A DNA stretch of 43,282 nucleotides, taken from the IMG/VR virus record IMGVR_UViG_3300003690_000021, positions 1 to 43,282 of that record; one strand, written 5' to 3'. Positions 1,041 through 42,752 of this stretch are shown one piece after another (the first letter of the stretch is position 1; the number at the start of each line of letters is the position of its first letter). The position numbers and the translations under genes were made by a program. The notes under the pieces are model-generated. The model saw only the letters and a program-made list of their open reading frames with translations. It was not told the origin of the DNA and did no database searches. The DNA is from a virus.

Positions 1041-4000
1041 ATGCCGGTCCACGACACATATGAGAGCCTCCTCGTTGAGATGGAGAACAACAAGGGCGAG
1101 TCGGTATACGATAGCGTCATGCGCGAGATGGATCGCGGCAAGGTCAAAGATAATCTCTACAAACAGGGGGCGTTGGGGGTAGTAGAGGCTTTCGGGCGTG
1201 TAGCTTCGGGGATCACGCAAGATCCCGAGATAAAAGAATACTACAGGAGCTTATCCCAAAGAACCGCCCCTAAGACCCTCGCGGGAACGACATTGCGGGT
1301 TGGTGGCAACGTCTTAGGCGAGGGCCTGCTGTATTATACCGGCGGCAGGTTTATGAAAAGCCTCGCGGGTGGTGTTGCTCAGCGAGTAGCTCCGCAACTA
1401 GCTGGGCGCGCCAGAGGGTTAGGCGCCAAGCTTATGTCGAAGATCCCGGAAAGGTTTCGTGGCGTTGCAGGGGCCGCGGGCGAGGTGGCAGGAGATGTTG
1501 TCGCGTACTCTCCTGTGGATTTGGCGATTACTGCCTCTGGCCCCGAGAGTTCGGTCGCTGGAGCGATAGCGGAACTCACCGATTCCGAGATAGCCGAACG
1601 TATTGCTGCGGATCCCGGCTCGCGATTCCTGGCTGAGATGGCGACCGGCGCGGTAGGTGACACGGCGATCCGCTTGATCGCTCGTGGTGTGCGTTTATTG
1701 CGTAGCGGTGTGGCCGGACTGGCGCCCGATGAGCTGAATCGTCCTGTCAGTGAACTGTTTCGTGGTCGGCGCCAGGTATCTGACCCTCCACTTGATGAGA
1801 TGCTTCAGCTTGAGGCTGGTCCGATCATTACTCCCCCACCTACTCGTGAATTGACTGACGAGGAAGCTTTCGTGTTCGCTGGCCGGCAGGCAGACGAGAC
1901 ACGCTTGAGGCGTAGCGAGACTGAAGCGGAACTTGCTAGGCTTGGACTAGAGCCATCTGCTGTCAAGCAAATTGAGGCTGGTGCGATCATTACTCCCGCA
2001 CCTGCTCGTGAATTGACTGACGAGGAAGCTGTCGAGTTCGCGGGCCGGCAGGCAGAAAAGTCACGCCGGCTGCGTAGCGCGGCTGAGGAGATAATGGTCA
2101 GGCTAGGGTTGGAGCCACCCACCGTTCGCGCATTGCCAGCTCCAGATGTAGCTGGTGGACCGCTAATTCGAGGACCTGGTGAAGTTACCCCAGACGAACT
2201 CCCGACGGTCCGTCCAGGCCAAGGTGCTGCGGAGTTGCGGTACGCGGCAGATCGTGACGTAGTACGGGAGCCGACAGTCGAGCCTCGTGGCGTTCATACG
2301 CTAGATGATCCGGCCGCGCCAGGACGGGATCTGGATGCAGCAAAGCTAAGGGCAGAGGAGGGTCCGCCCGTTGCGGATTCAGATCCGGTGACTATTACCC
2401 CACGTCCTGATGGCGGCGTCACGGTTGTCGGTTTTCATGGTACACGCACATCTGGGGAAGTAGCGACAGCGTTTGGTGGAGTTCATATCGGAACCAGGCG
2501 GGCTGCAATCAAGCGTCTCGCTGACCATGTGGCTGGTCAAGTGGGTGGTCTCCCAGGAGCGGAGAAATTACAGACCATAGAAGTCAAACTATCGAATCCG
2601 CTTGGGTCTGTAGAGAATCCGATGTTTGAGAAAGACATGTTTCAAATAGTGAACGTGCCCAGACGCTTGGCCGAACTAAAAGCTCAAGGTGTAGACGGTG
2701 TCATTTACCAGAACATCGTCGAGGATCGTGGGCAGATATCGGTATTAGCGTTTGATCCCAAGTCTACTAATATCAGGCAGACAACGAACGTATCCGATCA
2801 AGTGAAAAGCTACGAGAAGGAATCGATGGATCTTTGGGCAGCGGTTAGACGGCAAGAGGAGATAGTTGCGGCTGTGGAGACCCCGCTAACCGAGCCGCGC
2901 TTTGGTCGCCGCATGGTCCGTCCAGGCCAAGCAGAGCTACCCGAAGGCGATGTCGTCGTTACGCGTGTGGGAGGCACGGCTGTTGGTGGTGGGCTGAAGG
3001 AGACCATCTTAGACGAACTCCCGACGGTCCGTCCAGGCCAAGGTGCTCGTGTGGGAGGCACGTCTGCTATAGACGCTCCCGGATTGCCGGGTAAAGGTGC
3101 AGCAGAGCTACGACGTCGTGCCACTTATCGCAATCAGTATGAAAAACTTTCCGACAATAAGTTGGTAGATAAGTACCGTAATCTTGTACGGAGCATGGTA
3201 CGGATTGAAGGAGAGGCTGAATATAGAAACATCTCCTTCGCACGCGGCCGACGCACTCAACAACGCGACCGTATCCTTGAGGTTGAGGATATGCTGAGGC
3301 AGCGTGGTGTAAATCCTGAGAATGCGCGTGCTGAGATATATGTAGGGATGAAGCCCTCAGATGTGTCCGAGGCTAATCGTGATCTGCTAGGGTCACTCGA
3401 TGAATTGAGTGATGAAGCTGTCACGCAAGAAGTTAGGCAAACTGTTCGGGCATGGCAGGGCGATCGCGCCAGTACATCGCTGAACGAACGTCTCGCAATG
3501 CTTCACGACAATATTGAACGTCTCGGACGTAATGTGTCCGATGAGGCGTGGGATTACAGTACGAGTAGTGGTTTAACGGGCACTGGTTTACAGGCTCGTG
3601 GCGTCCTAGCTCTCCTGGGTGGTGCAGCAGCCGCTGCGACAGGCGACACGTCCGAGGAGCGGTTGCAGCGCGGGCTGACCGGGTTTGCTGTTGGTGCAGG
3701 TGTGGAGGCCATCAGCATGAGAGCGCTTTCCAAGCGCGCGAAGTTTACAGCGCGAGATGCTGCCGTGCTCGGAGGCAATGAGGCAGCTACGAGAGTGGCG
3801 GCTAGTGTTGGTACTGGTGCCGAGATGAAGTCCGCAGTGACAGGAACTCTCCCAGAGAGGCTGCGTGAATTTGGCAGCTATTTGCGCTACAAGCTAGCTC
3901 GGGTTGAGCAGCCCCTAGAAGTGTTCGGGCGCGAGGTTTCCGGTACCGAGAAGCTACGCGATGAGATGGCCAGTGCTCGTGGCACTGTGGCCACAGCTGG

Positions 4001-6494
4001 CGAACACATGAGCGAGCGGCTGGCGCCGGTACTGAAAGCGACTCAAGCGATACCTAGATCGGTGAATGCTTTAGCAAAAGCCGAACGCGGCCTAGAGTTG
4101 GTCAGGCTAGGCAAGGAAGCCACGCCCCAGCAGATATCTGACTGGACCGAGACGGTGACGCACCTGAATGCCGATCCTGATGCGCGCCAAGGTGTGGATG
4201 CCCTGCGTGCGTACTACCGCGAGTTGCTGGACATGAAGCTAGATGAAGGTGTGCTGTCGCGTGAGCAATACGACGCGATTGTGGCACGTGGAGAGAACTA
4301 TGTGCCATTCGTGCCGGACGATCTAATGGAGTGGACGGGTACTGGGTGGAAGTACGCTCCGGTCAGAAGCACGGGCGTAAGGCGGTCCACAGGCGAGAAG
4401 GTTGCCGAAGCGGCAACAGTCGATCCGCTGGATCAGGCCATACTAGATACCTACGAAACGTTCGCGAGAGTCGGCAAACAGCGAGTCGCGAACGTTATCG
4501 GCGGGATAGTCAATACCAATCCAGAGGCTGCTGCTAAGTTCATAACCGAGGTGACGCCAGCCCGTAAACCAGGTGGCGCTCCGGTGTCGGAGCTTGATGT
4601 GGTCGAGACGATCGTGAACGGTGAGCGTCGGTTCTTTCGTGTCCACGACCGCGATCTCTTTGAATCTTGGACGAATTTCAACAAGTCGACCACCTCAGGC
4701 GTGGTCAGCGTATTGAACAGCGCCAGACGCTTCATGCAGGCGTCGATCACGGGCCACCCGATGTTCGGGGTAGCGAATGGCATTCGCGATTTCCTTATCA
4801 GTTCAATGGCCTACCCGCTGAAAGGCGGATTGAGGGGCTTTGCCGGTGCGACCGCTGCTGGTGCTGGGATAGGAGCCGCCATCGATGAGGACAGAGGGCG
4901 CGGCGCAGTGAGGGGTGGTTTGCTAGGCGCGACCATGATCGGCGCCCCAAATCTTGCTGCCCACATGACGCGTTCGCTATCGGCGCTCAACGATATCATG
5001 GGTCCGAAGGTTGTTGGTGGAGTCGCGGGTGGTATGGGTACCTGGATTGGGCAGGACGACGATAAGACATTACCCGAATTCTTGGCGACAGTCGGGCTTG
5101 GGGTCGCGATCGGGACCGGGGCCGGGGCGGGTGTGGGTAAAATACTACCCGGTAACAAGGAAATATACGCCGAGTTTCTGAGGGGAGGCGGAGGTGGTAT
5201 GGGTTTCTATGCCCATGACAAGCGCTCTGCTAAAACGCTCAGGCGCGCGCTGTTACGTGAGGGTGTGAAGCCTTCCGATTTCATCAACCCGCGCTCGATA
5301 TGGGACGCGGTGCAGTACGTCTCGCGGGCGATTGAGACGGCACCGCGGCTGGCACGCTACAAGGAACTCAGGGCGGCCGGCGAGGAGGTGCCCGAGGCAG
5401 TGTTCCAGGCCCGTGATCTTTCGCTCGATTTCTCAGTCAAGCCGGGCAGTGAGACTCTTGCCACAGCGACACGGGTAGTGCCGTTCCTGAATCCCTGGAT
5501 CCAAGGTATGGACAAGACGGCCCGGTTGATGGCGGATCCGGACGCTGTCGCGGTTGCTGGTGCCACAATCCTCGCGCCATCGGTTTCGCTCTGGATGATG
5601 ATCCAATCGGATCCGGAGGTCGCGCGTGCGTACAACGACCGTCCGTCTTACGAGCGTAACTCTCATTGGCTAATACCGAAGAAATGGTTCACCGGTGACG
5701 ACGGGTTCTGGCGTGTACCAAAGCCGTTCGAGGTAGGGTTCATTTATGCATCGTTGCCTGAGCGCACGCTAGAGTATTTGGGTTCTAAGGACCCCGAAGC
5801 GTTTGCTGGTGCGCTGCGCGATATGTATGGGCAGTTCACACCGGAGGGTTGGCCGGTGGCCGTAGGTCCTATTGTAGAGGCTTCGATCGGCGAGCATGGC
5901 TATGACTTCTGGCGGCGCCGTGAGATCGACCCGCGTTCGTGGGAGAACCTGCCGCCCGAGTTCCAATACGACGAGCGTACCTCGATCGTGGGCTTGAAAG
6001 CCGGCAAGCTTTTAGGCAAAAGCCCAGCCAAGATAGATCACTTGATCAGGGGTATCACGGGTAGTTTGGGTGCCGAGGGGCTAAATCTTACTACCCAGCT
6101 CGCTAAAAGTCTCGGCATCGACACTAGGGTGGAGCCGATGGGCACAGGTCGGATGTTCGCGCGTCGGTTCCACACCAGCCCTGTAGCGACGACCGAGAGC
6201 GAACTCTTATTCCGCAGGCGTTGGGACAAGGCTGACAAATCATACAATGCGCTCGAAGAGTTGGTGACTAGCGGGAAGGAAGCCGAAGCACGTGAGTACG
6301 CACGTGAGCATCGCGACGATCTGGAGACCTATGCCAAAATGCGTGAGACCGAGAAAGCTTTACGCAAGCTTTCTCGTGCTCGCGGTATGATCAGGGAAGC
6401 CCCTCTACCGCGTGATGAGCGCCTAGAGTCTGTACAGAGAATCAACCGGGCAATCAGTGAGATGACGCGCGCCACCATGCGCGCCAACAACTGA
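1041..6494 (+). CDS. Giant (1817 aa) polyvalent virion/ejection protein with an ADP-ribosyltransferase-like segment
   Basis: Single uninterrupted ORF. Residues ~455-578 (nt 2403-2774) read VVGFHGT...VHIGTRRAA...GVDGVIYQNIVEDRGQISVLAFDP, which resembles H-Y-E ART-like domains of phage polyvalent proteins. It has 54-aa tandem repeats, a recurring DELPTVRPGQGA motif and several Gly/Ala-rich hydrophobic segments. It lies just before the lysis cassette, as T7 gp16-type proteins do. Confidence 0.6.
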   Translation: MPVHDTYESLLVEMENNKGESVYDSVMREMDRGKVKDNLYKQGALGVVEAFGRVASGITQDPEIKEYYRSLSQRTAPKTLAGTTLRVGGNVLGEGLLYYTGGRFMKSLAGGVAQRVAPQLAGRARGLGAKLMSKIPERFRGVAGAAGEVAGDVVAYSPVDLAITASGPESSVAGAIAELTDSEIAERIAADPGSRFLAEMATGAVGDTAIRLIARGVRLLRSGVAGLAPDELNRPVSELFRGRRQVSDPPLDEMLQLEAGPIITPPPTRELTDEEAFVFAGRQADETRLRRSETEAELARLGLEPSAVKQIEAGAIITPAPARELTDEEAVEFAGRQAEKSRRLRSAAEEIMVRLGLEPPTVRALPAPDVAGGPLIRGPGEVTPDELPTVRPGQGAAELRYAADRDVVREPTVEPRGVHTLDDPAAPGRDLDAAKLRAEEGPPVADSDPVTITPRPDGGVTVVGFHGTRTSGEVATAFGGVHIGTRRAAIKRLADHVAGQVGGLPGAEKLQTIEVKLSNPLGSVENPMFEKDMFQIVNVPRRLAELKAQGVDGVIYQNIVEDRGQISVLAFDPKSTNIRQTTNVSDQVKSYEKESMDLWAAVRRQEEIVAAVETPLTEPRFGRRMVRPGQAELPEGDVVVTRVGGTAVGGGLKETILDELPTVRPGQGARVGGTSAIDAPGLPGKGAAELRRRATYRNQYEKLSDNKLVDKYRNLVRSMVRIEGEAEYRNISFARGRRTQQRDRILEVEDMLRQRGVNPENARAEIYVGMKPSDVSEANRDLLGSLDELSDEAVTQEVRQTVRAWQGDRASTSLNERLAMLHDNIERLGRNVSDEAWDYSTSSGLTGTGLQARGVLALLGGAAAAATGDTSEERLQRGLTGFAVGAGVEAISMRALSKRAKFTARDAAVLGGNEAATRVAASVGTGAEMKSAVTGTLPERLREFGSYLRYKLARVEQPLEVFGREVSGTEKLRDEMASARGTVATAGEHMSERLAPVLKATQAIPRSVNALAKAERGLELVRLGKEATPQQISDWTETVTHLNADPDARQGVDALRAYYRELLDMKLDEGVLSREQYDAIVARGENYVPFVPDDLMEWTGTGWKYAPVRSTGVRRSTGEKVAEAATVDPLDQAILDTYETFARVGKQRVANVIGGIVNTNPEAAAKFITEVTPARKPGGAPVSELDVVETIVNGERRFFRVHDRDLFESWTNFNKSTTSGVVSVLNSARRFMQASITGHPMFGVANGIRDFLISSMAYPLKGGLRGFAGATAAGAGIGAAIDEDRGRGAVRGGLLGATMIGAPNLAAHMTRSLSALNDIMGPKVVGGVAGGMGTWIGQDDDKTLPEFLATVGLGVAIGTGAGAGVGKILPGNKEIYAEFLRGGGGGMGFYAHDKRSAKTLRRALLREGVKPSDFINPRSIWDAVQYVSRAIETAPRLARYKELRAAGEEVPEAVFQARDLSLDFSVKPGSETLATATRVVPFLNPWIQGMDKTARLMADPDAVAVAGATILAPSVSLWMMIQSDPEVARAYNDRPSYERNSHWLIPKKWFTGDDGFWRVPKPFEVGFIYASLPERTLEYLGSKDPEAFAGALRDMYGQFTPEGWPVAVGPIVEASIGEHGYDFWRRREIDPRSWENLPPEFQYDERTSIVGLKAGKLLGKSPAKIDHLIRGITGSLGAEGLNLTTQLAKSLGIDTRVEPMGTGRMFARRFHTSPVATTESELLFRRRWDKADKSYNALEELVTSGKEAEAREYAREHRDDLETYAKMRETEKALRKLSRARGMIREAPLPRDERLESVQRINRAISEMTRATMRANN
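1803..2126 (+). repeat. Two 162-bp (54-aa) tandem repeats inside the giant gene
   Basis: LQLEAGPIITPPPTRELTDEEAFVFAGRQADE... is followed by KQIEAGAIITPAPARELTDEEAVEFAGRQAEK.... The first ~90 nt of each unit are nearly identical. Confidence 0.85.
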
Positions 6495-7242: not shown

Positions 7243-7647
7243 GTGCCGAGCTTCGGTCGGCGCTCGCTCGGCAATCTGAAGAACGTCCATCCCGATATGG
7301 TGCGTTTGTTTACCGAGGTCATCAAGCACCGCGACTGCACCGTGCTCGAAGGCCACAGAAGCCCCAAGCGTCAAGCGCAGCTGTTCGCCGAGGGCAAGAC
7401 ACAAAAACGCGCTGGCGGCAAGCACAACTTGTTTCCTTCGGAGGCCGTAGACGTGATGCCGTGGTTCAACGCCAAGCCGCACATTCGTTGGAATGACACG
7501 CGAGCGACGTACAGCTTCGGTGGTTTCGTGCTCGGTATGGCGCAGAGTATTGGCATCCGCATCCGCTGGGGCGCCGATTGGGACGCGGACCAGGAGTATG
7601 ATGATCACACCCTTGTCGATGCGCCGCACTACGAGATTCTGAAATGA
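7243..7647 (+). CDS. Endolysin, peptidase M15 (VanY / L-alanyl-D-glutamate peptidase-like)
   Basis: Motifs EGHRSPKRQAQLF, GGKHNLFPSEAVDVMP and LVDAPHYEI fit the H..D..H zinc-ligand pattern of M15 peptidases. The gene sits among membrane-protein genes. Confidence 0.75.
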   Translation: MPSFGRRSLGNLKNVHPDMVRLFTEVIKHRDCTVLEGHRSPKRQAQLFAEGKTQKRAGGKHNLFPSEAVDVMPWFNAKPHIRWNDTRATYSFGGFVLGMAQSIGIRIRWGADWDADQEYDDHTLVDAPHYEILK

Positions 7648-8133: not shown

Positions 8134-8727
8134 ATGAAGCTATCCCTAGTGCTGCTCGTTTCCCTCGCAGTCCTAGCCCTCCTGGGGTTGCGCCTGTCGT
8201 CGGCCGAGAGGCGGGTCGCCGAGGCGGCGACTACGGTGGCCGTGCTGGAGATCGAGCGCGAGCTGCTAGAGCTTCGGGCCAAGGCCAAGTCCGCCGCACT
8301 GGACAGCGTCAGGGCGGCCGCGGCGGTCTCGGAGCGTGTCCTGGCCGCCCAGCGGGCCCAGGCCAGCCAGAGGGCTGCTCAGGCGGCCAGGCAGGTATCT
8401 GAGGCTGGGGGGGAGGTCCGGGTGCTGCTGGACAGCCTGGGGCTGAATACCGAGGTGCTGGACCTGCTGGTCCTGGCCCACGACGAGGAGGTGGACGCGC
8501 TGGAGGAGCAGATCAGCCTCGCCGACTCGACTGCGGCTGTCCTGCGGGGGCAGCTAGAGGCTACTGATACCGCCCTGGCCTCCGAGCGAGCGGTTCGTCT
8601 AGCGGCTCTTGCCGAGAACGAGGCGCTACGGAAGCAGGTGCGTGCCCTCGAAAATGCGCGGTTCCGCAGCAGGGTCTTCTCCGGCGGGATTGTCGTAGCC
8701 GTACTGGTCGGCGCCGTGCTGCTGTAG
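8134..8727 (+). CDS. Coiled-coil envelope protein with hydrophobic N- and C-terminal segments (spanin-like)
   Basis: MKLSLVLLVSLAVLALLGL at the N-terminus, a long Ala/Leu/Glu/Arg heptad-like region, and VFSGGIVVAVLVGAVLL at the C-terminus. No Cys, so no lipobox. It is the last gene of the rightward arm. Confidence 0.4.
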   Translation: MKLSLVLLVSLAVLALLGLRLSSAERRVAEAATTVAVLEIERELLELRAKAKSAALDSVRAAAAVSERVLAAQRAQASQRAAQAARQVSEAGGEVRVLLDSLGLNTEVLDLLVLAHDEEVDALEEQISLADSTAAVLRGQLEATDTALASERAVRLAALAENEALRKQVRALENARFRSRVFSGGIVVAVLVGAVLL

Positions 8728-21861: not shown

Positions 21862-22026
21862 ATGGGGTCCTGGAGGGTGTGCAGCCTGATTGCTGCCGGG
21901 CTGTTCCTGGCCTTGGTCGTGGACGCGAGCCTGGGGCCATGGGCTGAACGTGCGCGCTTCCGTCATTTCCGGAGGCTTGAACGTGCCGGCAGGTCGAGGG
22001 CGGCGCTTTACGGTAGTGGGATGTGA
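21862..22026 (+). CDS. Small (54 aa) membrane protein candidate, below the ORF-track cut-off
   Basis: Hand translation gives MGSWRVCSLIAAGLFLALVVDASLGPWAERARFRHFRRLERAGRSRAALYGSGM. GAGGA lies upstream. The stop TGA overlaps ATG 22026 of the large terminase. Confidence 0.3.
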   Translation: MGSWRVCSLIAAGLFLALVVDASLGPWAERARFRHFRRLERAGRSRAALYGSGM

Positions 22027-23753
22027 TGGCGGGCATAAATGACCTAGCCGTGATCCTGGAGTATGGGCTCGAATTAGGGTCCGGCTTAACGGTGATCCAT
22101 GAAGGCGAGCCAGCGCCCGAGGGGTGGCGCGAGTGGGTCGGCGAGCTATTCCCGAGCTACGTCACCTACCCGATGGGTGAGCAGCACGGCGAGCTTTGGG
22201 ATCACGTCTGGAGCATCGAGCCTGCCTCATCACCGAGGAGCTTTTGCGCGATCTGGGCGCGTGGCGGTGGCAAGACGACGACTGCCGAGATGGCGTGCAC
22301 GGCGTTGGGCGTTAGGGGTGCCAGGAAGTATTGCTGGTACGTCAGCGAGACCCAGGACAAGGCCAACAAAAACATCGAGAACATCGCGGTTCAGCTCGAA
22401 TCGGAGCATGTCCTGCGTTTCTATCCGCGGCACGCGAACAGGAAGGTCTCCAAGTATGGCATGAGCCGTGGATGGCGCAGGAACAGGCTCAGGACCGCCG
22501 GCGGCTTCACGATTGACGCGGTGGGGCTGGACACTGCAGCTCGTGGCTTGAAGGTCGAGGAGGAGCGTCCGGATCTGATTGTGCTCGATGATGTTGACGG
22601 CAAGCACGATACGCTTGCTACGACGGCCAAGAAGATCGCGACGATGACGACTTCGGTACTGCCTGCCGGTTCGTCTAACGCAGCTGTGCTCTTCGTGCAG
22701 AACCTCATCATCAAGGACGGCGTAGCCAGCAGGCTCTCGGATGGTAGGGCGGATTTCCTAGCTGATCGGATCGTGAGCGGACCGCACCCGGCTGTGCGCG
22801 GGCTCAAGTACGAGTGGATCGAGGAGCTTGGCGGAGTCAGGCGCGCCAAGATCACAGGCGGGGTCCCGAGCTGGGCTGGCCAGTCGCTCGAAGTCTGTCA
22901 GCGCATGATCGAGCGCATGGGTTTGATCGCGTTCTTGAAGGAAGCCCAGCACATGGTCAAGGAGCTGGCCGAGGGCACGGTGTTATCCAAGTACGACCCG
23001 AGCGCATGTCAGCGCGAGTGGAACAATGAGGACTTGAGACTGGGGTTCGCTGGGGGCACGTTGATCCCGTTTGCTGGCATCGACTACGGTCTCTGGCGGT
23101 TCGCGTTCCTGCTGCTCGCGATCGATGAAGAGGGGTTCGTGCATGTCATCGATGAGTACTTCAGCCAGCGCGAGACTCTCGGGGCGAGAGCGCAGCACAT
23201 TCACCGCATGCTCGGAACGTATGGGATCCAGGGACTCAAGGTCTACGGTGATCCAGCGAACCCTACCGACTCGCTGGAGCTGAACACCGCGCTGGAGCGG
23301 GGCTGGGTCGAGGACGACGAGCAGGTCATGCCGCGGTGGCGAGCGCACGCGGCTGTCAAGGACAAGGGCTCACGGCTGACGGGTCCGGACCGGATCAACG
23401 CGATGTACGAGAGCCGCACGCTGTTCGTGCGCATGGGCATCGGGGACGGCAAGCGTTGGATGCTCGGCATGAACGCCAACTCGGCGGGTGACGCACAGTC
23501 CGGTAGCCGGTTCCTTTGGGAGCAGGAGAACTGGGCGTTCCCCAACCCATTAGAGGGTCGCTCTCAGGACCAGAACCCTGATGACCATACGGCCGATGGC
23601 GCCGACATGATGGCAGCGTACCGGTACGCGATCATGAGTCACTTGAGTCCGGCTGTGGTCGAGGTACAGGAGCCCGAGAAGATCAAGAACTATGACTACG
23701 CGCTGGAGGAAATGGTGGACAAGGTAGCACGTCAACACGAGATGATGAGGTGA
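22023..23753 (+). CDS. terL: Terminase large subunit
   Basis: Walker A WARGGGKTT, Walker B DLIVLDDVD, and a C-terminal nuclease-like region with acidic residues (IDYG, GDPAN, DDHTADG). The start could be ATG 22026. Confidence 0.85.
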   Translation: MMAGINDLAVILEYGLELGSGLTVIHEGEPAPEGWREWVGELFPSYVTYPMGEQHGELWDHVWSIEPASSPRSFCAIWARGGGKTTTAEMACTALGVRGARKYCWYVSETQDKANKNIENIAVQLESEHVLRFYPRHANRKVSKYGMSRGWRRNRLRTAGGFTIDAVGLDTAARGLKVEEERPDLIVLDDVDGKHDTLATTAKKIATMTTSVLPAGSSNAAVLFVQNLIIKDGVASRLSDGRADFLADRIVSGPHPAVRGLKYEWIEELGGVRRAKITGGVPSWAGQSLEVCQRMIERMGLIAFLKEAQHMVKELAEGTVLSKYDPSACQREWNNEDLRLGFAGGTLIPFAGIDYGLWRFAFLLLAIDEEGFVHVIDEYFSQRETLGARAQHIHRMLGTYGIQGLKVYGDPANPTDSLELNTALERGWVEDDEQVMPRWRAHAAVKDKGSRLTGPDRINAMYESRTLFVRMGIGDGKRWMLGMNANSAGDAQSGSRFLWEQENWAFPNPLEGRSQDQNPDDHTADGADMMAAYRYAIMSHLSPAVVEVQEPEKIKNYDYALEEMVDKVARQHEMMR

Positions 23754-25866: not shown

Positions 25867-28155
25867 GTGCCAAATGTTATCCCGCTCATGCAGGACGGGC
25901 TGGCTGGCGCGCCGTCAATGGCGGGCGACCAGCAAGACCAGCTAGGCCAAGCCGAGAAGAAAAAGCTCGCGATCGATTCGCGGGATTTTCATTGGCGTGG
26001 CCTAAGAGCTCGCCGACTCCGGGATTTGACGTCAGAGAAGTATTTGCTGCACGTCGACGGCGAGGGTCTCTCGCAGTGGCTCGACATCTTCCGTGGCACA
26101 AGGCTCCGCGCGGCCCCTGACCTGATGGGCGTCCCGCGGGCGCAGAATAACCAGATGCGCCCGATCCTCGACAACTTCGTAGCGCACCTCACGACTCAGA
26201 ACTATCAATTCGTCGTCGAGGCCAAGCCAGACCGTAGGAGCCGCGAGAGCGCTGTCGTCGACCAGGCGATCGTCAACGCGGACGTCCGCAGGCAGAACTG
26301 GAATTCGCTCTGGGCCGAGGCGAAGTACATGGCTGCGTGTGCCGGTTTCTGTCCCGTGCATGCGATGTGGCGGGACGAGCAAGGGGATCCCTACGAGGCC
26401 GTGCTTGCTGAGCAGCCGACAGATGAGGGTGCGATCCCGATGCAGGGCCCTATGCCCGGCTCGATCGACAGCTTCGTCGGTAACCCATTCGATACTGTTT
26501 TCAACTCGGGCTCGCGTCGGAACAGTATCCACCGTGCGAGTTACGGTCGGGTGCTACCCGCTGAATTGGTGCGCCAGGCTTTCGGTAGGGACGACATTGA
26601 GGGTAACGACCGCCTGCCCAGTGCCTCGACCTACCAGCGGGTCGTCCAGCGCTGGATCATGGCTGGCGGCTTTACGCACGGCACGGGCGCGCTGAGTCTC
26701 GGCTGGGGCCACGAGGAGATGATTGGCCTGATCTATGACGAGACGCTGCCGGGTGTGGACGCCGAGTGGCCTCAGGGTCGGCTCACGATCAGTGCGCTCA
26801 ATGGTCTCGCCGCCACCCAGCGGCTTGAGGCCGGGGGCGGACTTGGTGAGCCGACGTTCTTGTGGATCGGGCCGTTACCTGCTGGTGTGTTCAGCTTCGT
26901 GAACGTCTATAGCCACCAAAGGTTCGACGACGTGCACGGCAAGCCCTACATGAGCGATATCGATGACGATCAGATCGAGCTGAACCAGCTGGAGAGCCTG
27001 TACAACGAGTTTGTCCGGCGCGCCACTCGTGCGCCCCTGGCCAGCTCGGGCAAGGTCAACGTTGAGACCGCCGGGCCGCTCGGTGACACGCTCCTGGAAG
27101 TCGAGCCGCTGTTGCATGGTGGTAACATCGAGATGCAATTCTTAGAGCAGCCCTACCGTCACATGCCGTTCCTGCAATCGAAGATCGAGCGCGTGATGGA
27201 GGGCATGTACCGGAAGGCTGGATGGCAGGCAGCGAGCCGTGGCGAGATGCGTGGTTCTGGCAAGGCGATCATCGCACTCCAGCAGGCCGACGACTCGATT
27301 TTCGGTCCGATCACGCAGCGCACGCGGGAAGAGCTGGAAGCCTACGCCGATCTCTGTTGGCGCGTCCGCAAGGAATTCATGGACGTACCGATGATCTTGG
27401 ACGTGGTAGGTGACGAACTAGCCCATCTCGCTGAGCCCTACGTCGATCGCACGATGATGAGCGAGAACCCGCCTGTCTTCACGCTGGTATCTGGCTTCGG
27501 CACGAGTACCGAGGCTAAGGCCCAGCAGCTGCTCAACATGTTCGGGATGGTTGACGCGAAGGGCGAACAGCTGATCGGTACCAGGGAGATCAGGAAGCTC
27601 TGGCCCGATAACAGCCTGTTCCCGGTGATGGACGACCCACAGGAAGTTCGTGAGCGTCGCCCGCGCATCGTGAATGAGTTGATCAGACAGCAAGCTGAGC
27701 GTTTCGTGCAGGAACAACAGATGCAATTCCCTGAATGGCAGCCCGCGATGCAGGACCCGATGACGGCGCAGGCTGGTGAATACATCTCGTTCGTGATCGA
27801 CTCAATGGAGCCAGCGCTGCAAGATGACGACCTGGAAGCGAACATCGAGGTCTTGAGTCTGATCACACAGGACCCGACCGAGAGCCCGCTTGTACGCCGT
27901 ACCGCGATGGTCCGCCAGGGTCAGTACTGGGAATGGCTCGCTGCCCGCCAGGCGGCGGTACAGCAACGCGAAATGGCGATGGCGGGGAGCGGGCGTGGAG
28001 GTGGTAGCCCCGGCAGGTCACCCGGCAGGCCACCTGGCAGGAGCGGTGGTGGTACTAGCGCTGCCGAGGCGTTCAATCCTGGCAAGGAAGGCGGCACGTC
28101 GACAGCTGAATCGATGGTACGTGCAGACAAGAAATTCGAGAGGGAGATCGCATGA
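25867..28155 (+). CDS. Portal protein (by size and position)
   Basis: 762 aa. It is the first large gene after the terminase module and lies immediately upstream of the scaffold and capsid genes. Gly/Arg/Pro-rich C-terminal tail. Confidence 0.6.
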   Translation: MPNVIPLMQDGLAGAPSMAGDQQDQLGQAEKKKLAIDSRDFHWRGLRARRLRDLTSEKYLLHVDGEGLSQWLDIFRGTRLRAAPDLMGVPRAQNNQMRPILDNFVAHLTTQNYQFVVEAKPDRRSRESAVVDQAIVNADVRRQNWNSLWAEAKYMAACAGFCPVHAMWRDEQGDPYEAVLAEQPTDEGAIPMQGPMPGSIDSFVGNPFDTVFNSGSRRNSIHRASYGRVLPAELVRQAFGRDDIEGNDRLPSASTYQRVVQRWIMAGGFTHGTGALSLGWGHEEMIGLIYDETLPGVDAEWPQGRLTISALNGLAATQRLEAGGGLGEPTFLWIGPLPAGVFSFVNVYSHQRFDDVHGKPYMSDIDDDQIELNQLESLYNEFVRRATRAPLASSGKVNVETAGPLGDTLLEVEPLLHGGNIEMQFLEQPYRHMPFLQSKIERVMEGMYRKAGWQAASRGEMRGSGKAIIALQQADDSIFGPITQRTREELEAYADLCWRVRKEFMDVPMILDVVGDELAHLAEPYVDRTMMSENPPVFTLVSGFGTSTEAKAQQLLNMFGMVDAKGEQLIGTREIRKLWPDNSLFPVMDDPQEVRERRPRIVNELIRQQAERFVQEQQMQFPEWQPAMQDPMTAQAGEYISFVIDSMEPALQDDDLEANIEVLSLITQDPTESPLVRRTAMVRQGQYWEWLAARQAAVQQREMAMAGSGRGGGSPGRSPGRPPGRSGGGTSAAEAFNPGKEGGTSTAESMVRADKKFEREIA

Positions 28156-29444: not shown

Positions 29445-30758
29445 ATGGCTTTGGGCTCACAACAGAGTAACGTCGACGCCCTAACCGGCATCACGGGCCT
29501 CGTGCACGAGATATTCGTGGGCGATGTATTGCCTGGTGTGCGGTGGGAAAGTCCGACGGCTCAGATGTATATGAACGCGCAGGAGGGTGATTACCGTTAC
29601 GACGGCGAATCGCTCAACGGCGCGACGGATTTACAGCGTCCGATTGGTGCTTTAGGGACGGACGGCATGCTACCGGACAGTGCACACACTGATGCCGCGA
29701 ACTGGCAGACCACGCCAGCTCGTCGGTATGTCAGGCGCGCAGTTGACAACTTCGTAGAGGCGGCAGCTACCCGCGGTCCGGGCAGCTTCGCCGATCTCAG
29801 CACCCGGCTCTTCGATCAGATGTGGGGCGCATTCCGGCTCATGGAGATCCGTCATGCCATTGGTGGCAACGATGGGATCCTGTGTCTCGTGTCATCTAAG
29901 ACGAGCACAACCGTGTGGGTTGCGAAGGACGGGTATAACCATAGCGGCACCAACCCGCTTATGCTGATGGACGAGGGCATGGTGCTCACGCATCACTCTA
30001 CGGACGGTGGCTCAGCTGAAGGGGCCGGCGCGGTCAGCTCAATCGCGTACTCGACCGATACGGTGACGATGGCTGCGGATTGGGAGCAGTCGGCGGCGGT
30101 CGCCTCTGGTGATATCGTTTGTGCGGCGACGACTACAGTCACAACGACCGACTACTTCAAGAGTGAGAATAACCTCGCGAAAAATGGTCAGGCCGACATC
30201 ATCGATCCGGATGCTAACCTGACCACGGTATTCAACATCGCCGAGGGCACGTTCGCCCGGTGGAAGCCGTTCAGGGTGGCGAGTGCGACATATGATCACA
30301 TTGAGGTGGCTGAGTACATGCAGAGGTTGGCTGCGAAGTCGACCTATCCGGTGACACCGGACTCGCATACGGCCGTGATGGCTGGTGGTTCGTTTGCGGA
30401 GCTGGCGCGCACGCTGGTCGGTTTCCAGCAGCAGCAGCAACTCGGTAAGACCTTCGAGGGTGGCTACCAGGCGGTTCGGATTGCCGGGCATGACATCGTC
30501 GTAGACGACTACCAGCTGCACGACGTGATGAGCGTCTATGCCACCGAGGATCTCTACACGGTCAGTCTCGTCGAGGCGGGATATTTCGATGAGGACGGCT
30601 CGATGTACTCGCGCATCAGCGATTTCGATGGCAAGGAGTGGTATGTGCGCGATTACGCGAACAGTTTTACACCTGTACGGAACAGGTGTGGTGCCCTTAC
30701 GGGCATTTCGCACCCGAACGTTACGGTGGACAATTTCGTACCGACTCCTGACTACTAG
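29445..30758 (+). CDS. Major capsid protein candidate
   Basis: 437 aa, following the scaffold gene. Good SD, and a strong hairpin lies directly downstream. Confidence 0.6.
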   Translation: MALGSQQSNVDALTGITGLVHEIFVGDVLPGVRWESPTAQMYMNAQEGDYRYDGESLNGATDLQRPIGALGTDGMLPDSAHTDAANWQTTPARRYVRRAVDNFVEAAATRGPGSFADLSTRLFDQMWGAFRLMEIRHAIGGNDGILCLVSSKTSTTVWVAKDGYNHSGTNPLMLMDEGMVLTHHSTDGGSAEGAGAVSSIAYSTDTVTMAADWEQSAAVASGDIVCAATTTVTTTDYFKSENNLAKNGQADIIDPDANLTTVFNIAEGTFARWKPFRVASATYDHIEVAEYMQRLAAKSTYPVTPDSHTAVMAGGSFAELARTLVGFQQQQQLGKTFEGGYQAVRIAGHDIVVDDYQLHDVMSVYATEDLYTVSLVEAGYFDEDGSMYSRISDFDGKEWYVRDYANSFTPVRNRCGALTGISHPNVTVDNFVPTPDY

Positions 30759-33148: not shown

Positions 33149-33685
33149 ATGAGTCCAGGTAGCCAAGTAGACCGTATGCCGACCACGAAGATCCGGTTGC
33201 CGAGTCTGGTACCGCCACGTGGATCGAAGCCGATTGGCATAGACGAATCGAGCGGCAAGGTCATCTACACGATGGAGATGCTCGATGTACAGGCCATGAA
33301 GGCGGCCAAACGTCAGCGTGTCGATAGTAATGGCAGACCGGTTTTCAAGAAGCACCCGACGACAGGTGAGGAGATATATCCGATCCTAGAGATGCCGAAA
33401 CCGATCTTCCGCACGAAGCGGTTCGTGCTGCACGCCACCGCGAGCCAGAAGGTCAAGATGATTGAGGGCTTCGAGGAGACCGTAGCCGAGATCTCGGAGC
33501 GCACGAACCGCAAGAGGGTCGCCAACTTCGCTCACGATCTAGCGAACGAAGCTGTCCGTCGTGGATTCGCTAACGCGAGCGAGATGATGGATGAGTTGTT
33601 CAAGGATTCCGTTCAGAGTACTGAGCTACAGCAAACGGTTTTTGAGGCGGATGAGCCGAAGGATAAGAAAAAGAGTAGGCGATGA
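33149..33685 (+). CDS. Hypothetical structural protein
   Basis: AAGGAG SD, 178 aa. Confidence 0.5.
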   Translation: MSPGSQVDRMPTTKIRLPSLVPPRGSKPIGIDESSGKVIYTMEMLDVQAMKAAKRQRVDSNGRPVFKKHPTTGEEIYPILEMPKPIFRTKRFVLHATASQKVKMIEGFEETVAEISERTNRKRVANFAHDLANEAVRRGFANASEMMDELFKDSVQSTELQQTVFEADEPKDKKKSRR

Positions 33686-34398
33686 GCGTTCTGACCAATC
33701 GCGCACTGTTGCTGGACGAGTTCTTCAGGCTCGTGGATGCTGACATCACTGACGACAGCATGATCGAACACGATCCGACGGCCGGTGATGGGGCGTACAT
33801 ACTTTTGCAGGCCGGGTGCTTTGACGCGCAGCTCTATCTGATCAGCTGCGGGGCCGGCAGCCGATGGGCGAAGACGACGTCGGCGCTCACGTTCACCGGT
33901 GCTGACCCTGACAGATACGTTGCACTACCGTCGGATTTTCTGAGGCTTGAGTCGGATCACGAGCGCTCGGGGCTCAGGACCACGGCTGGTGTCGCCTGGG
34001 GCAGAGAGATCCCGTTCCGGAATAGGTTCGACTTCCACGGGAACCACTTCTACATGCGTGGCAATGAAGCGGCGAGCGGCTCGGAGGGCCAGCTCAGGCT
34101 CTACGTCGTCCGTGGTGCGGCGCCGCTTTCTGGGATGGTTGCCGACTACATCTACAAGCATGCCACACTCGCGGACGCGACAACGATCGACTTCGATTCG
34201 GCTGACCGGCAAATGATCCCGGCGTTTGCTGCGGTGCGCGCGTCCCATCAGTCGTGGTACAGCGGTGACGGGGAAGATAAACAGGCGCTCCGCGAGAACC
34301 TGGCGTTCGTGAAACAACAGGCTTGGCAGCGCTCCAGATTCAGCGCTCAGCCGAAGATGATAAGGCCGCATGCCATGATGGGTGATCGTTGGTACTAG
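33682..34398 (+). CDS. Hypothetical head-tail joining/adaptor candidate
   Basis: ATGA coupling to the upstream gene, 238 aa. The call rests on its position just before the tail fibre gene. Confidence 0.4.
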   Translation: MSVLTNRALLLDEFFRLVDADITDDSMIEHDPTAGDGAYILLQAGCFDAQLYLISCGAGSRWAKTTSALTFTGADPDRYVALPSDFLRLESDHERSGLRTTAGVAWGREIPFRNRFDFHGNHFYMRGNEAASGSEGQLRLYVVRGAAPLSGMVADYIYKHATLADATTIDFDSADRQMIPAFAAVRASHQSWYSGDGEDKQALRENLAFVKQQAWQRSRFSAQPKMIRPHAMMGDRWY

Positions 34399-34477: not shown

Positions 34478-36952
34478 ATGGCAGCATTCGGTATCAAAGC
34501 GATCCAGCCGGAAGACAACGAACATATCCTCGGCTTCGCGACAGCGCGGGCGACGGCGGATATGTCATTGCTAGAAATCTGGAACGGGCCGACGTCCTCA
34601 GATCTTGTGCTTACGGTGGACAAGGCCGGCCAGCTGCAAGCCGCTAATGGTACGGTACTGAGACCTTCCTACGCGTTCGAGAACGCAAAGACGGATGGGC
34701 TCTACTACATCGGCACGAATAATCTGGGCTTTGCCGTGAATGCTGTGCTGATGATGGAGACGGCCACTTACGGGCTCGGCATCCAGAACGCCTACGGGCT
34801 AGTAGTGGGGCACACAGGGCAGCTTGTGACGGGCGACCCGAGTTCGCCGGGCACAGCGATAACGGCGGAGGTGCAGGTCGCGGGCACAGCAACTGCCGAT
34901 GCGACGGCGATGATAACCCGCCACAGTGCTGATGCGAACGCGGGCGGCATTACTATTTCCAAGTCGAGGAATGCGGCACTGGGCTCGTACACGGTCGTAC
35001 AGGACAACGACTACCTGGGTCACGTTGCATTCGCTGCTGACGACGGTACAGATACCAACACTACGGTAGCGCGGATCTCTGGCCGGGTAGACGATAGCTC
35101 ACCAGCGGGATCGGACATTGGTGGCGAACTCATCCTTGAGACGGGCTCGGGCGGAGGGGCGAACAATCTGGCCGCTGCGCTAACGCTTAGTGCGGCCAAA
35201 CTTGCGACGTTCACGGGCATTGTATCGACGACGGACGCCACGGAAGCGACCAATACTACCACGGCATCGCTCAAGACAGCGGGTGGTATTGCGTGGGTGA
35301 AGGACGCCTACGTCGGCGATGATATGTTTTTCACGTCCGGCGCGGTGCTGGACTTCAACAGTGCCGACATGACGGTCACCCACTCGTCCAACACTCTAAC
35401 CGTGGCCGGTGGGACGTGGGCGACCGCCGCGTTGACTGCCTCAACCGGTGTGTTCAGCGGCATCCTGAAGACGGATGATGCGACCCAGGCGACTTCGACG
35501 ACAGACGGCAGTCTCCAGACGGATGGGGGCCTGAGCGTCGTCAAGAATGCTGTCATCACAACGATGACGTTAGCTACCGGGTCGATCACCGATTCCAGCG
35601 GCGCGATCAGCTTCGGCAACGAGAACCTGACCACGACCGGTACACTGGCGTCGGGCGCGCTGACCGTGACCGGTGCCGTGCTCGTGAACACAAACGACGG
35701 CGGCGCGCTAGGAGCGAGTGGCACTGGCTGGTCTGATCTGTTTCTCGCGTCTGGTGCTGTTGTGGACTTCAATGCCGGCGATGTTACGCTGACGCACAGC
35801 TCGAACACGCTAACGGTTGGTGGTGGCACGCTCGCGACTGGAGCGTTGACTTCGTCGACTGGCGTGTTCTCAGGGATCCTGAAGACGGACGACGCTACTG
35901 ACGCGAGCAGTGGCACTGACGGGTCACTTCAGACCGATGGTGGGCTCTCTGTCGTCAAGGCGGCGTGGATAGGCACTACCGTTACCGCTGACGCTTACCT
36001 GGCCTCTGCGAACGATTCTGGGGCGCTCGGTGCATCTGGAACGGGGTTCGCGGATTTGTTCTTAGCTAGTGATGCGGTCATCAACTTCAATGCTGGCGAT
36101 GTGACGATCACACATTCGGCGAACGTTCTGACTATTGGTGGGGGTGACACAAGTCTAGCGAATGGGTTCGGTCTGGTCATTGGTCACACAGCTTTAGTCG
36201 CTGTAGCTAATAGTGCCCCCGAAGTGGAGATTCTTGGTACGGGGGAAGCTGATTCCTGCTTGGTGGTGGGTAGATGGACTGATGGAGGTGACGCGGGATC
36301 AATCCGTTTCTATAAGTCGCGTGGGGGTAGCATCGGGGCACTAGCAACGGTCAACTCAGGTGACCAGCTGGGCGAAATTCATGCTTTCGGGGACGACGGT
36401 TCTGACCCTAATACCAAATCCAGCGCGATTATATTTGACACTGAGGGCACGGTAGGTGCGGGCCAGGTACCGGGCATCATCAAGTTGCAGGTGGCTGCTG
36501 CGGGGACGCTAGCTGACGCACTGACGGTTGCATCGAATAAAGCCGTATCATTCTCGTGTCCCAACACTGTTTCGGGGACGGGGTTGATGCTCACATCGAA
36601 CGATACTTCGGTACAAGAGGTCATGCGCGACAGCTCGTCGGCTCGCTTCAAGGAAGACATTGAGGACGCTAGGATTGATGTTAACGCGGTTCTCGAAATT
36701 AATGCCAAGGCATATAACAGAAAGGGTGCGCGCGGCCGTAATTTGGGCTTTATCGTCGAGGATTTCCACGACGCGGGATTCGGCGACATCATTGCATACG
36801 ACAAGGTAGGCCCTGCTGGTTTCCTAGAATTCGGGCGTGGCGTGACGGCACTGCATCACGCTGTCCTGCAATCGCATAACGACCGCATCGAGACGAACGA
36901 GGAGAAGATCGTTCGGTTAGAGGCCGAGGTCGCTGAACTGAGGGCTGTCTGA
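34478..36952 (+). CDS. Tail fibre/spike with C-terminal intramolecular chaperone (peptidase S74) domain
   Basis: The C-terminal 109 aa (36623-36949) read DSSSARFKEDIEDARID...LGFIVEDF...coiled coil, matching the S74 auto-cleaving chaperone pattern (S-x-x-R-x-K-x-x-I). The Gly/Thr/Ala-rich shaft contains three repeated modules. Confidence 0.8.
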   Translation: MAAFGIKAIQPEDNEHILGFATARATADMSLLEIWNGPTSSDLVLTVDKAGQLQAANGTVLRPSYAFENAKTDGLYYIGTNNLGFAVNAVLMMETATYGLGIQNAYGLVVGHTGQLVTGDPSSPGTAITAEVQVAGTATADATAMITRHSADANAGGITISKSRNAALGSYTVVQDNDYLGHVAFAADDGTDTNTTVARISGRVDDSSPAGSDIGGELILETGSGGGANNLAAALTLSAAKLATFTGIVSTTDATEATNTTTASLKTAGGIAWVKDAYVGDDMFFTSGAVLDFNSADMTVTHSSNTLTVAGGTWATAALTASTGVFSGILKTDDATQATSTTDGSLQTDGGLSVVKNAVITTMTLATGSITDSSGAISFGNENLTTTGTLASGALTVTGAVLVNTNDGGALGASGTGWSDLFLASGAVVDFNAGDVTLTHSSNTLTVGGGTLATGALTSSTGVFSGILKTDDATDASSGTDGSLQTDGGLSVVKAAWIGTTVTADAYLASANDSGALGASGTGFADLFLASDAVINFNAGDVTITHSANVLTIGGGDTSLANGFGLVIGHTALVAVANSAPEVEILGTGEADSCLVVGRWTDGGDAGSIRFYKSRGGSIGALATVNSGDQLGEIHAFGDDGSDPNTKSSAIIFDTEGTVGAGQVPGIIKLQVAAAGTLADALTVASNKAVSFSCPNTVSGTGLMLTSNDTSVQEVMRDSSSARFKEDIEDARIDVNAVLEINAKAYNRKGARGRNLGFIVEDFHDAGFGDIIAYDKVGPAGFLEFGRGVTALHHAVLQSHNDRIETNEEKIVRLEAEVAELRAV
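35213..36145 (+). repeat. Three diverged ~100-aa modules in the fibre shaft
   Basis: TG(V)FSGILKTDDAT.A...TDGSLQTDGGLSVVK and AV.DFNAGDVT.THSSNTLTVGGG each recur three times. The modules are diverged at the nucleotide level. Confidence 0.8.
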
Positions 36953-42060: not shown

Positions 42061-42752
42061 GTCCACTAAGAAACCCGTGGGGCGATCCTGGTGCTACACC
42101 AGAGTTATCGCCTGATCGGACACGGACCGCCAAGCCGCGAAACCCGTGGGGCGATCCTGGTGCTACACCAGAGCTATCGCCTGATCGGACACGGACCGCC
42201 AAGCCGCGACAAACGGATTGGGAAAGAAACATTGAGCTGAATGAAAGAGCTAGGCGGATGCAAGCGTTTTATGAGCCGGCATGGTACGGTCAGCCCTCGT
42301 CGTATGACATGATGTACCCGTACCAACGCGATCGGTCAGTGTCGGATTCAGGGGTCTCTTCCTCTGGTATGCTGCCCCCTCCAACAATAGGCGGTTTCGC
42401 GACTCCGGGGCCGACTCCCTACACGCTGGAGGAAGCGAAAGCCGCATCGGAGCAATTATCTCGATCCGCCCTCGGCAGTAGGGGTGCTGAGGAGTATCTG
42501 GGAACTCCCGAGCAGATGGTAGCGACGTCTGGGCGTGTAGCCGATATGTGGCGTCAGGAGCAAGCATACGGAGGCCCCCCGATCGGGATGGCCAATCTCG
42601 ATAAGTACGGTCAAGGGCAACTGGAGAACTACGGGATGGGGGAACTGCGTCACTACGGTCAGGGCGATCAAGATCAAGTAAGTAACTATGGGGTGGGTAG
42701 GAGGGCCGGGTATCGGCCTATGATGAGGGACGAATTCCTACGTCGGAGGTAG
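42057..42752 (+). CDS. Hypothetical virion protein with a perfect 23-aa tandem duplication
   Basis: ATGA overlap with the upstream gene. RNPWGDPGATPELSPDRTRTAKP occurs twice. Confidence 0.5.
   Translation: MSPLRNPWGDPGATPELSPDRTRTAKPRNPWGDPGATPELSPDRTRTAKPRQTDWERNIELNERARRMQAFYEPAWYGQPSSYDMMYPYQRDRSVSDSGVSSSGMLPPPTIGGFATPGPTPYTLEEAKAASEQLSRSALGSRGAEEYLGTPEQMVATSGRVADMWRQEQAYGGPPIGMANLDKYGQGQLENYGMGELRHYGQGDQDQVSNYGVGRRAGYRPMMRDEFLRRR
42070..42207 (+). repeat. Two 69-bp tandem repeats (68/69 identical)
   Basis: Unit 1 is 42070-42138 and unit 2 is 42139-42207, with a single T/C difference. Confidence 0.9.

Follow-up and report, generated by a model that had tools for sequence, protein, structure and literature searches.

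A giant phage gene that probably encodes a polyvalent protein with a predicted ADP-ribosyltransferase-fold domain and a conserved LPD38 module

The window analyzed here is a 43,282-nt stretch of viral DNA (positions 1 to 43,282 of IMG/VR record IMGVR_UViG_3300003690_000021). On its plus strand, a single uninterrupted open reading frame (ORF) from 1041 to 6494 codes for a protein of 1817 amino acids (aa); the stop codon lies within these coordinates, and an AGGA Shine-Dalgarno sequence is found 8 nt 5' of the ATG at 1041. An earlier annotation made from the letters alone (hereafter, the sequence-only reading) had described one ORF taking up 12.6% of the genome, a figure borne out by the ORF list and the translation (5454 of the 43,282 nt). 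A protein with 100% identity (P0001), with its start assigned to an internal Met, is encoded on a 6.4-kb Joint Genome Institute (JGI) metagenome contig, where the downstream genes match too. We consider it probable that the gene encodes a phage polyvalent protein, that is, a giant late protein that would be packed in the capsid and leave with the DNA at infection. This interpretation rests on the observed ORF, the domain homologies, an ADP-ribosyltransferase (ART) fold, the conservation of residues, and a syntenic placement among structural and lysis genes. Proteins of this kind have been described since 2017, and the one in the window is a new, rather divergent representative.

Polyvalent proteins, as defined by Iyer et al. 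in 2017, combine 2-15 unrelated effector or enzymatic domains per polypeptide (PMC5512222). Two domains could be recognized in the protein, an ART-fold domain, which is the single predicted enzyme, and LPD38. The features of the gene are listed below, with the supporting evidence in parentheses (A1 is a 50-sequence alignment of ART family members; A2 is an alignment of nine C-terminal modules, the query plus eight homologs).

1041 to 6494, plus strand: whole gene, putative 1817-aa phage polyvalent protein (ORF and translation, AGGA site, identical P0001)
1041 to 1802, plus strand: N-terminal region, aa 1-254, with no detectable homologs
1803 to 2126, plus strand: two tandem 54-aa repeats, aa 255-308 and 309-362 (direct comparison)
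2192 to 2228, plus strand: copy 1 of an exact 37-nt direct repeat, encoding DELPTVRPGQGA (aa 385-396), upstream of the ART cassette (sequence comparison)
2403 to 2795, plus strand: predicted ART-fold domain of the ART-PolyVal clade, aa 455-585 (exhaustive phmmer, AlphaFold2, Foldseek, hhalign)
2436, 2484, and 2694, plus strand: predicted active-site residues His466, His482, and Asp552, respectively (joint alignment of A1 and canonical copies)
2900 to 2936, plus strand: degenerate third copy of the 37-nt repeat, 62% identical, sharing VRPGQ (aa 626-630) (sequence comparison)
3011 to 3047, plus strand: copy 2 of the exact 37-nt direct repeat, again encoding DELPTVRPGQGA (aa 658-669), downstream of the ART cassette (sequence comparison)
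3048 to 3911, plus strand: middle region, aa 670-957, charged, with a Gly/Ala-rich stretch at aa 847-871 and no homologs found
3912 to 6491, plus strand: conserved C-terminal module, aa 958-1817 (BLASTP, tblastn, PHROG 9854, A2)
4824 to 5153, plus strand: lineage-specific Gly/Ala-rich insertion, aa 1262-1371, including GFAGATAAGAGIGAAI and FLATVGLGVAIGTGAGAGVG (A2, composition, hydrophobicity)
5547 to 5603, plus strand: conserved hydrophobic helix, aa 1503-1521 (VAVAGATILAPSVSLWMMI), candidate membrane segment (Kyte-Doolittle value of 1.84, A2)
5628 to 6110, plus strand: LPD38 (Pfam PF18857), aa 1530-1690 (117 bits; the curated cut-off is 27)

The C-terminal part is shared with giant proteins of other phages. 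LPD38 is the sole significant Pfam family in the protein, and its match (E = 1.1e-33) supports a protein of the polyvalent type. PHROG 9854 (function unknown) covers aa 1366-1813 (E = 7e-48), and the best BLASTP alignment, with the protein P0002, extends over 910 aligned columns (query aa 958-1794) at 28% identity (E = 2e-76). A tblastn search against phage genomes detected the C-terminal module in 51 records, among them Page-like Bacillus megaterium podophages, many Vibrio podophages, Shewanella phage X14, Pelagibacter phages, Thalassomonas phage BA3, Vibrio phage VvAW1 (where the protein is annotated as "DarB-like antirestriction"), the E. coli phages PTXU04 and Pondi, and Planktothrix phage Pag-Yong1 ("large polyvalent protein"). 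Of the cultured phages with the module, the Page-like Bacillus phages, HTVC010P, and VvAW1 are short-tailed. In every homolog scanned, LPD38 is located near the C-terminus, while the N-terminal parts differ and are unrelated. Such an architecture agrees with the one described for phage polyvalent proteins, in which LPD38 has been reported as phage-specific (PMC5512222). A profile of the C-terminal module compared with solved structures found no relative, only coiled-coil noise.

A word-indexed homology search with the whole protein gave only six hits, and all the homologs found share only aa ~958-1817; the same type of search with aa 1-454 returned zero homologs. The first 254 residues have no match in Pfam, PHROG, or NCBIfam, and local phmmer returned P0001 only. 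The NCBIfam scan of the whole protein gave zero matches, and nothing significant was found among PDB sequences, where the single match was at chance level (E = 0.033). The middle region (aa 670-957) is probably helical.

The sequence-only reading had noticed that a segment of the N-terminal half resembles the ART domains of polyvalent proteins and had quoted its motifs, all of which are present where it had placed them: VVGFHGT (aa 462-468), VHIGTRRAA (aa 481-489), GVDGVIYQN (aa 550-558), and VLAFDP (aa 568-573). The resemblance is now upheld by homologs, profile comparison, and structure prediction. A word-indexed search with the ART alignment produced only three hits, and the family was recovered instead with an exhaustive phmmer search with aa 441-600 against 1.84 billion representative proteins, which found 83 homologs at E <= 1e-3; for 38 of these, E was <= 1e-10. 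Many are embedded in proteins 1400-4500 aa long, and some occur on their own as proteins of 130-240 aa. The ART segment is a genuine mobile domain. The Pfam family ART-PolyVal (PF18760) is matched by 14 of the 50 members in A1 (E <= 10), and of the ten members scanned individually, two align over their full length and score above its cut-off of 31.2 bits (69.8 and 44.4 bits). We also collected a canonical ART-PolyVal set from giant proteins with several copies of the domain, using as seed aa 969-1107 of P0011 (52.5 bits in Pfam), which adjoin a copy of the A1 type. With hhalign, A1 matched canonical ART-PolyVal over the whole domain with probabilities of 98.9% (E = 1.8e-16, 123 columns) and 98.4% (E = 4.4e-15). 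The domain in the window belongs to a divergent ART-PolyVal subfamily, one that goes undetected when the query is scanned with the Pfam model.

The fold was assessed by modeling. A single-sequence AlphaFold2 prediction of aa 441-600 was not usable (predicted local distance difference test score [pLDDT] of 37), and we used instead a model with A1 as input, which is confident (pLDDT of 94.2, predicted template modeling score of 0.87). Foldseek, the other check that the sequence-only reading had called for, returned ART-fold matches. The top PDB match was a chain of the cyanophage A4 pre-ejectosome, and those listed after it were RES toxins, exotoxin A, tankyrases, PARP2/3, NatT, and ParT, all with an ART fold. 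Against predicted viral structures there were 22 matches at E < 1e-3, including an N4-like virion RNA polymerase and proteins named "ART-PolyVal-like" and "PolyVal ADP-ribosyltransferase." A polymerase of this kind, from Roseovarius Plymouth podovirus 1, is the prototype context of ART-PolyVal (Iyer et al. 2017, PMC5512222). At the sequence level, the ART profile found nothing among PDB sequences, and the canonical ART-PolyVal profile gave only subthreshold ART-fold matches in the PDB, the best being RNA 2'-phosphotransferases (E = 0.14). In the model, aa 455-585 form an ART fold related to the ART domains of polyvalent proteins from phages and conjugative elements.

The residues that are invariant or nearly invariant in A1 are H12, G13, G26, H28, G30, A34, A35, R38, D98, Y102, N104, E107, D108, G110, and S113. 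In the protein, the key positions among these correspond to H466, H482, D552, Y556, N558, E561, D562, G564, and S567, and all of them are kept in the window. Considering that the residues invariant or near-invariant across the family are all present, the alignment argues for a working active site. The sequence-only reading had assigned the domain to the H-Y-E type, with His, Tyr556, and Glu561 as the triad, and this does not stand. According to Iyer et al., the signature of the clade is a His in strand 1, a Tyr in strand 2, and an Asp in strand 5, i.e., H-Y-D and not H-Y-E (PMC5512222). In the joint alignment, His466 (FHGT), near-invariant in the family, is aligned with the invariant His of the canonical YHGT; His482 (GGVHIGT), near-invariant in the subfamily, sits in the Tyr column (GxYFT), where canonical copies have Y, H, F, or W; and Asp552 (GVDGVIY) is aligned with the invariant Asp of the canonical GxDG, at the start of a predicted strand that we equate with strand 5 in our own reading of Iyer et al. 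Because His466, His482, and Asp552 occupy the triad columns, the domain is, by alignment, a His-His-Asp variant of the His-Tyr-Asp type of the clade. We rejected Tyr556 and Glu561 as triad residues, given that the alignment places His482 and Asp552 in those columns. Both belong to a motif specific to the subfamily, Y-x-N-x-x-E-D-x-G-x-x-S, in the loop and strand after Asp552, which comprises Tyr556, Asn558, Glu561, Asp562, Gly564, and Ser567. Tyr556 and Glu561, invariant in the subfamily, may well line the pocket. The use of NAD+ by the domain is plausible in view of the fold and the conserved residues, and so is an NAD+-dependent enzymatic activity on some target.

The same residues raise the question of whether the domain is a protein ADP-ribosyltransferase at all. 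In this alternative, which we regard as rather unlikely, it could instead hydrolyze NAD+ in the manner of RES proteins, modify the ends of nucleic acids, or be a noncatalytic structural or binding domain. RES toxins hydrolyze NAD+, and the RNA 2'-phosphotransferase Tpt1/KptA likewise has a His in strand 2. Such a chemistry would fit the replacement of the strand-2 Tyr of the clade by His482 and the new invariant constellation Y-x-N-x-x-E-D-x-G-x-x-S. Five members of A1 match RES, another ART-fold family of Pfam, weakly (best E = 0.0016), RES toxins are among the best matches to solved structures, and the best, nonsignificant, PDB matches of the canonical profile are the RNA 2'-phosphotransferases mentioned above. 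However, some canonical copies likewise have a His in the Tyr column, as do family members scoring above the Pfam ART-PolyVal cut-off, the similarities to RES and Tpt1 are all below significance, and the strong conservation of polar residues opposes a purely structural role. Protein ADP-ribosylation, the reaction of T4 Alt, is one candidate chemistry for the domain.

The ART domain is enclosed by an exact 37-nt direct repeat. The two copies are 100% identical and in frame with each other, at a distance of 819 nt (273 codons), and have unrelated flanks; in a shuffle control, none of 100 shuffles reached two matches. The sequence-only reading had counted three uses of DELPTVRPGQGA, of which two are exact, while the third site shares only VRPGQ. 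A 19-nt repeat, 95% identical, was also seen at 2964-2982 and 3048-3066. The two tandem 54-aa repeats proposed by the sequence-only reading were also confirmed, with 34 of 54 aa and 125 of 162 nt identical (77% in the 54-codon register, 82% in a 146-nt core). They were not reported by Tandem Repeats Finder run on the gene but were confirmed by direct comparison, and local phmmer found no homologs outside this protein, P0001 aside. Since the 162-nt tandem repeats have diverged, in contrast to the 37-nt copies, the 37-nt duplication is either recent or under some process that keeps the copies the same. The insertion of a cassette could have left it as a scar; alternatively, recombination could use it to lose or exchange the cassette precisely and in frame, or the copies could serve as two processing sites. 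No sister phages with which to compare presence and absence of the cassette were found in IMG/VR or in the metagenome scan, and no bracketing repeats were seen in the homologous genes of Pag-Yong1, Page, X14, or the P0002 contig.

A bolder proposal, which we consider a long shot, is that the ART cassette is ready for exchange or loss through the 37-nt repeat, or else that the His-His-Asp/YxNxxED subfamily has a chemistry other than protein ADP-ribosylation. If the former were true, recombination between the 37-nt copies would excise the effector precisely and recombination with another phage would swap it, which would give a concrete mechanism for the shuffling of cargo in polyvalent proteins and for population-level heterogeneity in the injected effectors. 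The latter could mean, e.g., NAD+ cleavage that blunts NAD+-dependent defenses or a modification of nucleic acid ends like that of Tpt1.

Another feature highlighted by the sequence-only reading was a series of at least six Gly/Ala-rich hydrophobic stretches. Such stretches do exist, but the composition scan gives four or five that are uncharged and Gly/Ala rich (847-871, 1262-1282, 1288-1307, and 1347-1371), and only two segments, 1347-1369 and 1503-1521, have transmembrane-like hydrophobicity (Kyte-Doolittle >1.4 over 19 aa). The stretches that had been quoted in support of channel formation do not help that case, as both lie in the insertion of ~100 aa (aa ~1262-1371) that is absent from seven of the eight homologs in A2 and partly present in P0002. 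The sole conserved hydrophobic helix is 1503-1521, directly before LPD38. An equivalent hydrophobicity peak is found 314-337 residues from the C-terminus in Page gp20, X14 gp01, and P0005, and the hydrophobic segments of these homologs align in A2. Membrane contact through this conserved helix is possible; channel formation is speculative.

These segments bear on the idea that the protein is a channel-forming ejection protein like gp16 of T7, which would build a trans-envelope conduit for the DNA, with the Gly/Ala segments in the inner membrane and the ART domain as a passenger. We find this possible but doubtful. The conservation of helix 1503-1521 and the resemblance of the Gly/Ala-rich stretches to glycine zippers would suit it, as would the top PDB match of the ART model, the A4 pre-ejectosome chain (E = 8.5e-3). 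The E. coli Stx phage phi24B codes for gp47 (2811 aa), which contains LPD5, LPD1, LPD38, and a MuF-C metallopeptidase, was found by virion proteomics, and has been proposed by its authors as a capsid-packaged ejection protein that forms, or contributes to, a periplasm-spanning conduit (bioRxiv 10.64898/2026.04.10.717836). Nevertheless, only two segments of the window protein have transmembrane-like hydrophobicity, the quoted stretches belong to the insertion that most homologs lack, and solved structures include no relative of the C-terminal module at the profile level. The protein did not resemble T7 gp14, gp15, or gp16 in sequence, and no ejection protein family of Pfam or PHROG matched it, nor did any transglycosylase or peptidase domain (Pfam, PHROG), so that the gp16-type assignment of the sequence-only reading is not sustained. 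Membership in the T7 gp16 family was rejected for lack of similarity in Pfam, PHROGs, NCBIfam, and PDB sequences.

The genomic setting is consistent with a late, virion-associated polyvalent protein. PHROG and Pfam scans identified the following genes in the window:

7243 to 7647: endolysin, downstream of the giant gene
22023 to 23753: large terminase
25867 to 28155: portal
29445 to 30758: major head protein
33682 to 34398: weak match to the adaptor of podophage SU10
34478 to 36952: tail fiber with an S74 chaperone domain
minus strand: DnaB-like helicase and exonuclease

Because terminase, portal, head, tail fiber, endolysin, and replication genes were all identified, the window has the appearance of a complete phage genome that is circularly permuted. 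The structural block has the giant gene as its last large gene, with two small ORFs in between before the endolysin gene. The gene scans thus agree with the sequence-only reading in placing it at the end of the structural module and before lysis, and Bacillus phage Page is arranged alike. Its location is also compatible with a gp16-like protein, as the genes ahead of it in the structural block encode other large, helical proteins rich in repeats and those behind it serve lysis.

The same scans detected no tail-tube, sheath, tape-measure, or chaperone families in the window, which, together with the weak SU10 adaptor match, makes a short tail plausible and again counts in favor of a gp16-like role. 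It counts strongly against a tape measure protein of a long-tailed phage, an option that we find extremely improbable and have rejected, since no long-tail genes are present. What could suggest a tape measure is that this is the largest ORF, in the late region, with Gly/Ala-rich hydrophobic stretches and internal repeats. Yet several of the cultured phages that carry the module are short-tailed, the genes that follow directly are those of lysis and not of a baseplate or tip, and the protein holds a globular ART domain plus LPD38.

As for the type of phage, 25 kb of the window had no DNA match when compared with phage records by megablast, and neither the portal nor a neighboring 798-aa protein had a tblastn match among 50,697 phage records. 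For this reason, the T7-like status assumed by the sequence-only reading is not established, and the phage is very distant from cultured phages. Its replication genes are on the minus strand, at ~9 to 20 kb, and the sign of the GC skew flips at ~8 kb and ~16 kb. Upstream of the giant gene in the same block, the 798-aa ORF (39664-42060, plus strand) is Gln/Glu rich, probably coiled-coil, and has about three tandem repeats of 99 nt (33 aa) at 41192-41516 with 80-87% identity; possible roles are those of an internal core protein, an ejection protein, or a determinant of length. The next ORF (42057-42752, plus strand, 231 aa) begins with two copies of a 69-nt unit (42070-42209) that are 98% identical and encode RNPWGDPGATPELSPDRTRTAKP twice. 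The repeats in this ORF and in the neighboring genes suggest frequent recent in-frame duplication in this gene block. Another ORF, of 553 aa (37506-39167, plus strand), has weak matches only (PHROG "amidase," E = 1e-6; NCBIfam glycosylhydrolase, 24.6 bits against a cut-off of 175) and may be a nozzle or a tail-associated enzyme.

Putting these data together, the polyvalent protein would work as a chassis loaded with cargo. The C-terminal ~860 residues, with helical regions, one hydrophobic helix, LPD38, and a coiled-coil tail, would be the constant chassis at the end of giant proteins of many short-tailed phages. Its most likely task is to bring the protein into the virion core and to let it leave by way of the portal and tail, and contact with the host envelope is a further possibility. 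The variable N-terminal half would carry the cargo, of which the sole recognizable element is the ART-fold domain at aa 455-585. This domain is predicted to act like T4 Alt, using NAD+ to modify a host macromolecule as soon as infection begins. By analogy with phi24B gp47, for which there are proteomic data, and from the position of the gene, packaging and ejection are likely.

Several observations weigh against this interpretation. No member of the ART-PolyVal clade is known to have been characterized biochemically, and where the clade has its strand-2 Tyr, the window protein has a His. The Pfam ART-PolyVal model has no match in the query, either in the whole protein (E <= 1) or in the isolated segment (E <= 10), and the Foldseek matches in the PDB are weak (E of 0.0085-0.14, TM-scores of ~0.5). 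Aa 1-454 and 586-957 (~820 residues) have no assignable function, which leaves one recognizable effector domain, and a Pfam scan found no peptidase domain able to release the cargo. The basis for packaging is the position of the gene and one distant relative with proteomics, phi24B gp47, which is not among the tblastn matches of the C-terminal module and is linked to it through the LPD38 domain that its authors report.

The analysis provides a defensible annotation for a "hypothetical" gene that makes up 12.6% of the genome of an otherwise unrecognizable phage. It makes visible a modular logic, with a constant LPD38 C-terminal chassis across podophages of very different hosts and a swappable cargo, and it defines a coherent ART-PolyVal subfamily (His-His-Asp plus YxNxxEDxGxxS) with 83 representative members, mostly in giant phage proteins, that the Pfam model largely misses. 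The small, well-modeled ART domain (pLDDT of 94) is a convenient starting point for biochemistry, and the bracketing 37-nt repeat offers a testable clue to the movement of effector cassettes. Apart from the repeat and the His-His-Asp subfamily, which exceed it slightly, the results amount to routine annotation, and the current understanding of these proteins is not overturned.

Among known systems, T4 Alt offers the precedent for function: it is an ART packed in the head, injected with the DNA, that modifies host proteins (PMC5512222). Unlike the window protein, it belongs to another ART clade (R-S-E), is a stand-alone protein, and comes from a contractile-tailed phage. The canonical ART-PolyVal domain (PF18760) is closer, sharing the fold, the strand-1 His, the Asp of GxDG, and the residence inside giant phage proteins, but the subfamily in the window has a His for the strand-2 Tyr, the extra YxNxxEDxGxxS, and no C-terminal "QIKSA" tail. 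The A4 chain that was the top PDB match of the ART model (9k3a_B; TM-score of 0.55 on the query, also weak) belongs to a capsid-internal ejection complex; the paper on it describes in gp28 an alpha+beta domain left unassigned, besides a transglycosylase and an M23 peptidase (PMC12002296). This unassigned domain might be an ART fold, although no relationship at the sequence level between 9k3a_B and the ART domain was found with the ART and canonical profiles against the PDB.

Regarding the whole protein, phi24B gp47 is likewise a giant LPD38-containing polyvalent protein of a short-tailed phage, but no ART domain has been reported in it. Page gp20 (YP_008770527.1, 1679 aa) is comparable in size and has the C-terminal module (~25% identity over ~720 aa), LPD38, and the hydrophobic helix; it is also the last structural gene, immediately before the holin and endolysin genes. 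It differs in that no ART domain was detected, its N-terminal half is unrelated, and the host is Gram-positive. Shewanella phage X14 gp01 (2740 aa) shares the C-terminal module and carries a methyltransferase domain. Conversely, the ART subtype is also found in giant proteins without the LPD38 module, such as P0007, with helix-turn-helix and RadC domains, and in nine IMG/VR loci the ART domain is inside open frames of 1045-2834 codons. Reshuffled cargo domains of this sort are characteristic of polyvalent proteins.

The closest counterpart is the "large polyvalent protein" of Planktothrix phage Pag-Yong1 (UMO75972.1, 2772 aa), whose gene is identical in the records MinM2 and Pra-JY27. In one polypeptide it unites the same ART subtype (tblastn aligned 89% of the domain at 31% identity) with the C-terminal module that contains LPD38 (also 31% identity; LPD38 at E = 5e-35). 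Unlike the window protein, it is ~950 aa longer, has a RelA/SpoT annotation in one record and probably more effector domains, is encoded in a 65-kb phage genome, and has neither the 54-aa repeats nor the bracketing 37-nt repeat nor the insertion rich in Gly/Ala. A 30-nt motif occurs four times along the Pag-Yong1 polyvalent gene (at 772-801, 2278-2307, 4804-4833, and 8136-8165 of our locus L003; 70-87% identity) and may be a recurring interdomain linker. A metagenomic protein, P0014, has the ART subtype at aa 115-252 and LPD38 at aa 1479-1622. The sequence-only reading had thought the combination of a channel-forming ejection protein with a host-modifying enzyme unusual. Given that Pag-Yong1 and P0014 pair the same ART subtype with LPD38, the combination is not unusual, and the fusion of effector domains into giant phage proteins packaged in the head is the theme that defines polyvalent proteins (PMC5512222).

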